The notes under the pieces are model-generated. The model saw only the letters and a program-made list of their open reading frames with translations. It had not been told where the DNA came from and ran no database searches. The translations under genes and the position numbers were made by a program. From Naegleria gruberi (taxonomy: Eukaryota), in the NCBI GenBank assembly GCA_000004985.1, contig GG739312.1: a DNA stretch of 1,889 bases; one strand, written 5' to 3'. Each line of letters begins with the position of its first letter. The stretch's first letter is position 1. This document shows, one piece after another, positions 3-1,889 of the stretch.

Positions 3-551
3 CATTTTGGAGTGTTTAGTTCAATGAAATTAACTTGTCTCGACCTATACAGTAACACTACGACCGAACAAGATCTGATTCATATCAGTAGATTGAAGAA
101 TTTGAAATACTTGAATGTTCGTTATTGTGATATGGATGACAAAAGTGTTAAATATATTGGCAAACTCGAAAATCTTACACACCTCAATGTAAATGAGAAT
201 TACATTTCTGATAAAGGTGTTAAATTCATAAGTGAGCTCAAACAACTTGTCGAATTAGAGATTGAAGATAACCCAACGATTAGTCCACAGGGAGTTGAAT
301 TAATATGTGGTATGACTCAACTAACTCATCTCAATATCGGTTGTAATTATTTAAATTTTGAGAATACCAGAGAATTAACCAAATTGAAAAACCTGACATC
401 CCTCGATTTAAATGGAAATGAAATCGGTAACGCTACGTATTTGAGTGAGCTAAGTAAACTCACCTATTTAAATATTGGATACTCATGTATGAACAATGAG
501 AATGTAGCCGGAAAGATTTTTCCTCTGGTCTTTCGAGGAAAGTTTCGCTGA
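3..551 (+). CDS. Leucine-rich repeat (LRR) protein, probably truncated at the window's 5' edge. The ORF track starts it at a GTG at 12, but the frame is open back to position 3 and the first residues are already an LRR unit. The stop is TGA at 549-551.
   Basis: The translation shows about six tandem 22-25-aa repeats matching the LRR consensus LxxLxxLxLxxNxIxxxG. Examples are LKNLKYLNVRYCDMDDKSVKYIGK, LENLTHLNVNENYISDKGVKFISE, LKQLVELEIEDNPTISPQGVELICG, MTQLTHLNIGCNYLNFENTRELTK, LKNLTSLDLNGNEIGNATYLSE and LSKLTYLNIGYS. The frame is open for 180 codons in AT-rich DNA, where stop codons are frequent. The first in-frame ATG is at 24, and GGAG at 9-12 sits slightly far upstream of it. The antisense ORF at 45..245 is therefore spurious. 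Confidence 0.8.
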   Translation, partial: HFGVFSSMKLTCLDLYSNTTTEQDLIHISRLKNLKYLNVRYCDMDDKSVKYIGKLENLTHLNVNENYISDKGVKFISELKQLVELEIEDNPTISPQGVELICGMTQLTHLNIGCNYLNFENTRELTKLKNLTSLDLNGNEIGNATYLSELSKLTYLNIGYSCMNNENVAGKIFPLVFRGKFR

Positions 552-555
552 AAAA

Positions 556-579
556 TGTTTCCTGGAAATTCCAGTAAAC
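556..579. repeat. Left arm of a 24-bp imperfect inverted repeat (candidate left TIR). It contains the perfect 13-bp palindrome CTGGAAATTCCAG at 562-574.
   Basis: Positions 556-579 read tgtttcctggaaattccagtaaac. The reverse complement of 1824-1847 is tctttcctggaaaatccagtaagc, giving 21/24 identity. Similarity stops immediately outside both arms. Confidence 0.55.
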
Positions 580-833
580 AATATTGATTCATCCTTATTT
601 GAGTTGGTTTATTACCATAATGGCAAAAGTGACTGTATGTGAAGAATCCACCTTAATTTGTAATTTTTTGTTCTGAAGCAGCAAACCAATGATATTAGGA
701 AAAGACATCATGTACTAATTTACTATTTTATTTGATGAAATCAAGTGGAGAATACATAAAACAGATGTTGCTACAAGAAAACACAATGCTAATAATAAAA
801 ATATAATTTTAATTAATTATTGAAATAATTCAA

Positions 834-847
834 GGTGGAAAATCAGC
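834..847 (+). repeat. Copy 1 of the dispersed motif GTGGAAAATTCCAC (ggtggaaaatcagc).
   Basis: One of five same-orientation copies, all related to the TIR core TGGAAAtTCCA. Confidence 0.35.
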
Positions 848-874
848 AAGATTTACGACCTTGAAATTACCTTG

Positions 875-888
875 TTGGAAAATTCACC
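875..888 (+). repeat. Copy 2 of the motif (ttggaaaattcacc). It overlaps the left arm of the 879-901 hairpin.
   Basis: Motif alignment by eye. Confidence 0.35.
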
Positions 889-901
889 ATTAGTGAATTT
901 T
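879..901. repeat. Perfect 9-bp inverted repeat or hairpin, aaaattcac-catta-gtgaatttt. It ends in a T-run, so it resembles a weak AT-rich intrinsic terminator on the plus strand.
   Basis: The reverse complement of 879-887 equals 893-901 exactly, with a 5-nt loop. It is followed by ttttatt. Confidence 0.45.
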
Positions 902-913
902 ATTGATGGTGTG

Positions 914-1024
914 ATGATGATGACCATTAAGATATTTACCTTAATGATCGGAAGTGGACTTGCTGATGATATTGATGATAAAAGATATGATGAAGTGAAA
1001 ATTCCACAACTCTATGAATACTAA
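914..1024 (+). CDS. Speculative small ORF of 36 aa, MMMTIKIFTLMIGSGLADDIDDKRYDEVKIPQLYEY. It has a signal-peptide-like N-terminus (K, a hydrophobic core, then an SGLA/DD cleavage-like site) and an acidic tail. The frame is open from 824.
   Basis: ATG triplet at 914-922 preceded by ggtg at 908-911, stop TAA at 1022-1024. A 66-codon open stretch is about what chance predicts in 1.3 kb of this composition, so support is weak. Confidence 0.12.
   Translation: MMMTIKIFTLMIGSGLADDIDDKRYDEVKIPQLYEY
995..1007 (+). repeat. Copy 3 of the motif (gtgaaaattccac).
   Basis: Motif alignment by eye; 12/13 match to a perfect palindrome gtggaaAttccac. Confidence 0.4.
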
Positions 1025-1040
1025 GTGGAAAAATTCCAAC
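1025..1040 (+). repeat. Copy 4 of the motif (gtggaaaaattccaac).
   Basis: Motif alignment by eye. It lies 17 bp downstream of copy 3, and both are preceded by aagtg. Confidence 0.4.
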
Positions 1041-1139
1041 TCTTGATGGTGATATTAGACATCCCTAATGATACTATGTTGTTGAAATTCAATCATCATG
1101 ATGAAAATATATGGTGAATGATGAATACACCACCAACAA

Positions 1140-1153
1140 GGTGAAAACTCCAA
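1140..1153 (+). repeat. Copy 5 of the motif (ggtgaaaactccaa), more diverged.
   Basis: Motif alignment by eye. Confidence 0.3.
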
Positions 1154-1491
1154 ATATCCAAAAATTATTATTCGGAGTGTTGTTGATGAAGTATTTGAAT
1201 GGTACTATTCGAAGAAAGTTTGGTTGATGATGAAGTACATGTTGAAATATGGTCAATGTATATTTTGAATATATACATAGTATATAGCAATACATATTCG
1301 AGTTTCATAGATTGGAATTTTGTTTTCATATGATAGGTATTACAAATAATCCCACATTTGAATTTCTGATAATGGTCTAGTACATCGGAAGATATTGGCC
1401 AATTTAGTGAAAAATTAACTTTTGTCAAAATAATACTATTCTCAAATTAAAGTCTACAAATACTATTCTGTAGGTAAAAATTAATGATGAT

Positions 1492-1525
1492 GGTTGGTGT
1501 GTGTTCTGATGATGATTCACCAACT
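1492..1525 (+). other. Stem-loop with stem gttggtg/caccaac (7 bp plus a G-U pair). The 18-nt loop carries ctgatgatga. A T-run at 1530-1534 follows.
   Basis: Positions 1493-1499 and 1518-1524 are exact reverse complements. The loop contains C-box-like TGATGA and D-box-like CTGA motifs. Confidence 0.3.
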
Positions 1526-1636
1526 TGAATTTTTCCTATATCAAAATTACTATCTAATTCCATAACGATAAACTTCCACATAAAACTACTATCATTACTA
1601 TTATATTGATGATGTATAGATGATGAGGTTCAATTC

Positions 1637-1666
1637 TTGGAGTGGGAAGATGAAGAACCACTCCGA
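1637..1666. other. Stable, locally GC-richer stem-loop. The 9-bp stem is ttggagtgg/ccactccga with one G-U pair, and the 12-nt loop is gaagatgaagaa.
   Basis: Positions 1639-1645 (ggagtgg) and 1658-1664 (ccactcc) are exact reverse complements, extendable by two more pairs. This is the most GC-rich and stable secondary-structure element in the non-coding region. Confidence 0.4.
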
Positions 1667-1797
1667 AAATAAGCTACTCATAAAATTGATATTTTTTATG
1701 AATGCAAGATACGTCTTTGTTGAGTTTACTGTGAATATTCTTTCGATGTCTTTGAGGTTCAAAACTGTGCAATTAGCTTCGGACTCAAAACTATTAA

Positions 1798-1823
1798 GGA
1801 AGTATTGCTTCCGTTTTTATTTT
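1798..1823 (+). terminator. Candidate intrinsic terminator. The hairpin ggaag-tattg-cttcc is followed by g, T5, A, T4.
   Basis: A 5-bp stem with 3 GC pairs and a 5-nt loop, followed directly by tttttatttt. It ends exactly where the right TIR begins, at 1824. The stem is short and weak. Confidence 0.3.
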
Positions 1824-1847
1824 GCTTACTGGATTTTCCAGGAAAGA
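1824..1847. repeat. Right arm of the 24-bp imperfect inverted repeat (candidate right TIR).
   Basis: Positions 1824-1847 read gcttactggattttccaggaaaga, the reverse-complement match to 556-579 at 21/24. With a rough AT-biased random model I expect about 0.007 such matches in a window this size. Confidence 0.55.
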
Positions 1848-1871
1848 TTTCTTTAAGAAACTCTTTCCTGG
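1838..1871. repeat. A 34-bp near-perfect palindrome. The 10-bp arms ccaggaaaga (1838-1847) and tctttcctgg (1862-1871) flank a 14-nt centre, tttctttaagaaac, which is itself partly self-complementary.
   Basis: Read directly from the sequence. The right arm is a direct-orientation partial copy of the left TIR (tgtttcctggaa versus tctttcctggga). The core is TTCC(A/T)GGAA. Confidence 0.5.
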
Positions 1872-1889
1872 GATACCCCAGCCAGAAAT

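Follow-up and report, generated by a model that had tools for sequence, protein, structure and literature searches.

In this work a 1889-nt stretch of contig GG739312.1 (hereafter the window; about 30% GC) was analyzed, which carries the 3' part of a leucine-rich-repeat (LRR) gene at its left edge, followed by a non-coding block bracketed by an inverted repeat. The inverted repeat is real and non-random, and our preferred interpretation, to which we give a probability of roughly 45%, is that its arms each represent a palindromic 3'-end hairpin module of about 60 nt, present once in either orientation, and do not mark the termini of a 1.29-kb element. A first-pass annotation had taken the arms for 24-bp terminal inverted repeats (TIRs) forming the tips of a 1.29-kb miniature inverted-repeat transposable element (MITE) or decayed transposon, and this headline reading failed every test that could be run. 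The fallback offered by the same annotation, i.e., palindromic sites with the core TTCC[A/T]GGAA bracketing a region, survives, as both ends of the block are palindromic and hairpin-forming.

Comparison of 556-579 with the reverse complement of 1824-1847 reproduced the 21 identities in 24 positions that had been described, and the score of this inverted-repeat core was reached by none of 2000 shuffled sequences. A repeat finder lists the pair as 541-584 and 1819-1862 (44 nt, 35/44 identical, 80%). When only the outer parts (525-555 against the reverse complement of 1848-1881) were placed in a collinear global alignment they scored 19, where shuffles scored -8.6 ± 5.8 and just 1 of 5000 reached the observed value. 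This outer alignment is significant and the repeat therefore runs over approximately 525-584 and 1819-1881, entering the LRR coding sequence by 27 nt and including its final nine codons together with the stop codon. Over the full extent 49 of 64 alignment columns are identical, with five gap positions, and none of 2000 shuffles equalled this. The proposed fall of similarity to background just outside the arms holds on the inner side (at about 584 and 1819) but not on the outer side, where similarity continues; likewise the left arm does not start 5 bp past the LRR stop codon, as had been supposed, but spans that codon from about position 525. The two arms agree best in their central part (558-578 on the left) and not at the tips. 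In the window as a whole the long-range repeat scores 49 and the local palindrome at the right end 51, with dinucleotide shuffles at 32.6 ± 5.1 and a score of 51 reached by 2 of 300 of them.

Each arm contains a palindromic core. The left core, a 25-bp palindrome (TGTTTCCTGGAAATTCCAGTAAACA, 556-580) read directly from the sequence and corresponding to the left arm of the earlier description, has 11 of 12 pairs matched about its centre at 568, with 561/575 as the single mismatched pair; the right core (CTGGA-TTT-TCCAG, 1823-1847, centre 1835) corresponds to the earlier right arm. The two cores match at 22 of 25 positions in inverted and 19 of 25 in direct orientation. The direct match is also high because each arm is a palindrome, and it is over wider comparisons (28 vs 21 of 33 positions) that the orientation is settled as inverted. 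At the right end, a 34-bp palindrome at 1838-1871 with an additional partial motif copy at 1862-1873 had been noticed; both are present, the palindrome being 28/34 self-complementary and forming the main stem of the right hairpin unit. The additional copy had been thought peculiar to the right end. The left end has one too (TTTCGAGGAAA, 531-541) and both ends are therefore symmetrical, with two motif copies per arm spaced 27-28 nt apart. Searching for TTTCCWGGAAA with up to two mismatches returned five occurrences where 1.0 was expected, a count that 1 of 200 shuffles reached, and all five fall within 531-578 or 1835-1874.

Folding, together with global alignment of the two copies, defines a left hairpin unit of about 60 nt (525-584, plus strand) and a right unit of about 63 nt (1819-1881, minus strand) which is its inverted copy. 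The left unit pairs CTGG (525-528) with CCAG (571-574), TTTC (531-534) with GAAA (565-568), and AGGAAA (536-541) with UUUCCU (558-563); the loop (542-557) contains the LRR stop codon, the 3' tail reads TAAACAATAT, and the minimum free energy (MFE) is -16.8 to -16.9 kcal/mol. Its core also folds as a hairpin (552-584; -9.2 kcal/mol, z = -4.2). The right unit has an outer CTGG/CCAG stem, a middle stem of 10 bp (CCAGGAAAGA/UCUUUCCUGG), and an inner stem of 5 bp about a TAA loop, followed on the minus strand by the 3' tail TAAGCAAAAT; the MFE is -24 to -26 kcal/mol with z = -4.5 to -5.2 (-26.2 kcal/mol and z = -5.2 for 1815-1889). The layout is common to both, consisting of the outer CTGG/CCAG stem, AGGAAAG-type and CTTTCCT-type stems, a loop with a stop codon on the inward-reading strand, and a 3' tail, the A-rich consensus of which is TAARCAAWAT. 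Both units also share the same inward polarity, running from a coding end through the hairpin to the A-rich tail. All 26 of the alignment columns that are paired in both units are identical, as are three of the eight columns unpaired in both. Differences between the copies in the coding part are mostly non-synonymous, as read from a codon-by-codon alignment, and conservation therefore tracks the hairpin rather than the protein; with two copies and no compensatory changes this pattern is descriptive and no proof of selection.

The left copy, on the plus strand, spans the end of the LRR gene, and the right copy, on the minus strand, faces inward. Each folds independently into a long hairpin with a stop codon in or beside the loop and an A-rich tail behind it, and in the preferred interpretation the module would act at the RNA level in transcript termination, 3' processing or stabilization. 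The pair would serve transcription entering the spacer from either side, which for the right copy implies an inward-pointing transcription unit that we infer to lie to the right of the window, and the 1.24 kb between the copies would be mere spacer. The mode of action might resemble that of palindromes of the repetitive extragenic palindrome (REP) and bacterial interspersed mosaic element (BIME) type, of factor-dependent or U-tract-less terminators, or of the "hairpin rule" signals of giant viruses. Gene-adjacent 3' hairpins are a known 3'-end signal in AT-rich genomes (PMC4402537).

A number of points weigh against this interpretation. The consensus scan places no U-tract behind either unit, which sets both apart from canonical bacterial intrinsic terminators. 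There are two copies only, every paired position is identical between them, and selection for structure is accordingly without support from covariation. The proposed 3'-end function is an inferred one. No further copies were found in the collections searched (see below), and a REP-like family is not demonstrated.

Two extensions of the module idea, taken together, appear to us quite improbable. By analogy with the Rickettsia palindromic elements (RPEs), the approximately 60-nt module could represent an undescribed family of small palindromic insertions in an AT-rich lineage, whose members would target the 3' ends of LRR (effector-like) genes, inserting at or in them and contributing a short C-terminal tail together with a stop codon and a hairpin. 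Alternatively, the module pair could delimit a plus-strand non-coding RNA (ncRNA) locus of about 1.2 kb marked by some 17 UGAUGA motifs.

Mobility was assessed from the boundaries and the interior of the block and by a search for further copies. Target-site duplications were sought by pairing every left boundary in 515-559 with every right boundary in 1845-1885 (1845 combinations; the window ends 8 nt past the right unit), and none was present at 525/1881, 541/1862 or 556/1847. The best flanking direct repeat, AGCCGGAAA (506-514) and AGCCAGAAA (1880-1888), matches at 8 of 9 positions. Chance alone would give about 0.8 such repeats, and this one is offset by 10-12 nt from the register of the arms; both of its copies are unusually GC-rich for this window. 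The sharp tips characteristic of MITEs are not seen either, the repeat extending outward from 556/1847 to about 525/1881. As had been proposed, no transposase lies inside: no Pfam or NCBIfam family was matched at E <= 1 in the six frames of 552-1889 with stops read as X, and the most open frame of the plus strand had no tblastn match among 72,556 plasmids. A decayed transposase or pseudogene in the spacer was rejected as a candidate, with nothing detectable by Pfam, NCBIfam or tblastn.

Further copies were searched for in GTDB genomes (596 Gb), JGI metagenomes (241 M records), IMG/VR, phages and plasmids, a set that includes neither the source genome nor a close relative. The degenerate 20-mer core TTTCCTGGAAAWTCCAGTAA gave six singleton matches in GTDB, nine in the JGI metagenomes and none in IMG/VR, numbers of the order expected by chance, and by blastn the matched loci have nothing in common with the window beyond 20-28 nt. 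An exact 36-mer found no relative in IMG/VR, a hairpin-stem pattern returned 14 singletons there, all unrelated, and blastn against phages and plasmids gave no match. A hairpin telomere or a fold-back assembly artefact was also considered and rejected, as the palindrome is short and imperfect and its flanks are not mirrored.

The transposon model can be enlarged to approximately 525-1881, which would then be a non-autonomous or decayed TIR element (a MITE, a decayed insertion sequence (IS) or a foldback-like element) inserted at the end of an LRR gene or inside it. In its detailed form this model, which we regard as distinctly unlikely in outline and in detail alike, has TIRs of about 60 bp with two palindromic binding motifs each in a layout resembling that of inverted repeat/direct repeat (IR/DR) elements. 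It agrees with the significant inverted repeat, with a length of about 1.36 kb that is typical of IS and non-autonomous DNA transposons, with an interior devoid of coding capacity, and with the two motif copies 27-28 nt apart in each arm. It does not agree with an identity that is highest in mid-arm, with the lack of target-site duplications at all of the boundaries that the repeat allows (the 8/9 direct repeat being out of register), with the absence of any transposase fragment from the Pfam, NCBIfam and tblastn searches, or with a core for which no second copy sharing its flanks was found in the collections searched. The model keeps some probability, since any duplication past 1889 would have escaped notice and since the host could be transposon-rich, which is conceivable given that the closest relative found for the LRR protein is encoded on a contig rich in Tc1/mariner, Merlin and gypsy genes. 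Common descent without any function of its own is an explanation that we also hold unlikely, while granting it an appreciable weight. Here the repeat would be an inverted segmental duplication, with a paralogous (LRR) gene or gene remnant, convergent and just beyond the window, of which the right unit would be the 3' tail. Similarity does reach outward into coding sequence and up to the final bases of the window, the net indel of 3 nt leaves the copies mutually in frame (as read from the alignment), the minus strand is open inward from 1889 in two frames, the inner edge at 584 is that of a second stop codon in the LRR frame (TGA 582-584), and both ends of the window lie in such sequence, as would be the case for a contig broken at paralogous repeats. 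The best conservation, however, lies downstream of the stop codon, and two of about 12 differing codons are synonymous, which gives no sign of purifying selection on the protein. The 8 nt visible past the right unit are too few for LRR coding to show, and descent alone leaves unaccounted for why the duplicated piece should be palindromic.

The palindromic cores could instead work as DNA, and two such scenarios were weighed. Together with the adjoining TTTCCNGGAAA motifs the cores might be operators which bind a dimeric regulator and bracket a regulatory or ncRNA region. This would fit two cores that are near-perfect dyads and motifs that cluster at the two ends only, and the asymmetries of the spacer plus strand and the terminator-like site at 1798-1822 are compatible with a transcript of its own. 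We nevertheless consider it very improbable, since no regulator gene or promoter was identified in the window (promoter-like sites numbered 12 vs 12.5 expected) and the hairpin architecture is conserved across 60 nt, beyond the needs of an operator. The least probable of the readings is an invertible segment, in which a site-specific recombinase would flip the 1.24-kb segment by crossing over at the two inverted palindromic sites. Crossover sites such as hix and gix are dyads of two half-sites of about 12 bp. The sites described here are likewise inverted and each a dyad of two half-sites of about 12 bp, the asymmetric mismatched pair (561/575 vs 1828/1842) is kept in inverted orientation, and the segment length is near that of Hin- and Gin-type segments. 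Within the window, though, no recombinase gene lies in or beside the segment, which has no ORF or promoter that would be affected by a change of orientation; if inversion took place at the centres no coding sequence would be altered, and the arms are only 77-88% identical.

The LRR gene itself occupies positions 3-551 on the plus strand, as identified from the list of open reading frames (ORFs) and by Pfam, and is open at the left edge of the window. The fragment encodes the C-terminal 182 residues of an RNI-type LRR protein (RNI-like, LRR_6), for which the Pfam scan gave E = 1.2e-17 with LRR_6 and E = 2.7e-14 with LRR_8. The final full LRR ends at about position 521 and the stop codon is TGA at 549-551, so that the coding sequence of the eight-residue tail LVFRGKFR and its stop lies wholly within the left hairpin unit. 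At the inner edge of the repeat (584) there is a further stop in the same frame (TGA 582-584), and the peptide between the two stops, KMFPGNSSKQY, is mirrored on the minus strand of the right end by EIFPGKSSKQN. Relatives of the LRR protein have 33-45% identity at best. A word-index protein search ranked Naegleria first, at 33% identity, and an exhaustive search of 1.8 billion cluster representatives found nothing above 45%. The closest relative found (45%) comes from a eukaryote-like contig with 41% GC, which is the one carrying the Tc1/mariner, Merlin and gypsy genes, and further good matches were bacterial LRR-Roc-COR-TIR proteins (Roco genes). An exact-product look-up of the LRR fragment and of two spurious ORFs returned no record.

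Between the two hairpin units lies an AT-rich spacer (585-1818) of 25-33% GC, without a credible ORF or a recognizable protein remnant. That the block is non-coding, as previously stated, was borne out by the absence of any ORF of more than 92 codons from 552 to the right edge in the standard code, and no convincing ORF above this length was found in the block when TGA, TAG and/or TAA were read as sense. A tRNA scan of the window found none. All 20 of the matches to Rfam 15 at E <= 10 were far under the gathering threshold; the only ones that fall on the repeat are to generic microRNA precursors, at 24.7 bits (about 25) against thresholds of 77-94, that for the 24.7-bit match being 90.

The spacer is asymmetric on the plus strand, with TGATGA motifs and a positive GC skew. 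Within 733-1626 the plus strand has 17 copies of TGATGA and the minus strand one, always in the spacer and never in the LRR ORF, against an expectation of 3.8 ± 1.9 for both strands, and none of 200 shuffles reached the observed count. In this region the GC skew is strongly positive (0.2-0.37), and of the 17 plus-strand copies about 9-10 are read as GAT GAx in plus frame 2. Decayed (TGA)n microsatellites, decayed acidic coding sequence or RNA motifs could be their source. The TGATGA excess underlies several sub-threshold Rfam matches to C/D-box small nucleolar RNAs (snoRNAs), all on the plus strand; a C/D-box snoRNA cluster was nonetheless rejected, the matches being sub-threshold and CTGA boxes too few. 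Another motif, GTGRAAAW, has four copies in 835-1414, every one of them on the plus strand, where 0.69 would be expected, and none of 200 shuffles reached four. Less strict matches to it, GTGGAAAAATTCCA (1025-1038) among them, form dyads that are related to the TGGAA/TTCCA core found in the arms. An oriC or DnaA-box cluster was rejected, TTWTCCACA with at most one mismatch being found twice where 2.0 were expected.

Parts of the spacer fold more stably than shuffled sequence. On the plus strand the region 800-1060 reaches -62.5 kcal/mol (z = -4.9), with 120-nt windows at z of about -4.7 on both strands, and contains discrete hairpins at 829-865 (16-nt arms, 88% complementary) and 886-912 (12-bp stem). 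A GC-rich hairpin in AT-rich surroundings (1637-1666; GGAGTGG ... CCACTCC, 7-9-bp stem, 12-nt loop) adds to a z of about -3 for 1561-1720, and has no T-run after it on either strand. The consensus scan called one intrinsic-terminator-like site on the plus strand (1798-1822), composed of GGAAGTATTGCTTCC (1798-1812) and the T-run GTTTTTATTT, with 0.5 expected. This site, which is the sole one of its kind in the window and adjoins the right hairpin unit, could mean that a plus-strand transcript ends within the block, though it is no more than suggestive. A small plus-strand ORF (1620-1856) is 78 codons long (52 when counted from its ATG at 1697), and the TAA that ends it (1854-1856) falls precisely on the apical loop of the right hairpin; a look-up of its exact product returned no record. 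The octamer AAAATTGA is found at 1682-1689, just upstream of this ATG; as a Mimivirus early promoter it was discarded as uninformative, one copy against 0.65 expected being at chance level.

It should be noted that what looks like a "TIR pair" can consist of one palindromic 3'-end hairpin present twice, and that with palindromic arms the inverted and direct readings are nearly equivalent. As it stands the finding is a minor one, a hairpin repeat at a gene end being an ordinary kind of feature; it would be of greater importance if the 60-nt module were multi-copy and remodelled LRR C-termini, or if the spacer were a long structured RNA.

When compared with known systems, the block is similar to MITEs, other non-autonomous TIR transposons and decayed IS in having an imperfect inverted repeat around a transposase-free segment of about 1.3 kb. 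It differs from them in its palindromic arms, its internal maximum of conservation and its outer edge, which is not sharp, and in the absence of a target-site duplication, of a transposase remnant and of other copies in the collections searched. With rho-independent terminators the repeat units share a stable stem-loop placed directly at a stop codon, and the window does have one terminator of canonical appearance (1798-1822); the units themselves have AT-rich stems and A-rich tails and no U-tract, and in the scan for a GC-rich stem followed by a U-tract only 1798-1812 with its T-run was called. The hairpin-rule 3'-end and polyadenylation signals of Mimiviridae and Pithovirus provide a parallel in an AT-rich genome, with palindromic hairpins at gene ends that need no U-tract, but these are described as not conserved in sequence between genes, whereas the two copies described here are about 77% identical (PMC4402537). 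As regards a viral origin, no relatives were found in IMG/VR. A non-coding gap of 1.2 kb would also be unusual for viruses of the Mimiviridae or Pithovirus type. REP/BIME and RPEs are genome-wide families with tens to hundreds of copies, often accompanied by RAYT, while here two copies are visible in the 1.9 kb of the window, with no sequence similarity to any of the loci fetched. The likeness to them is in form and position, i.e., short imperfect palindromes that form hairpins at gene 3' ends in either orientation, and a stable hairpin of this kind is what is found at the end of the LRR gene, where the left unit spans the stop codon. RPEs can sit within coding sequence and add residues to the product (PMC1458961, PMC1779305), and in a similar manner the left unit supplies the tail LVFRGKFR and the stop codon to the LRR protein.

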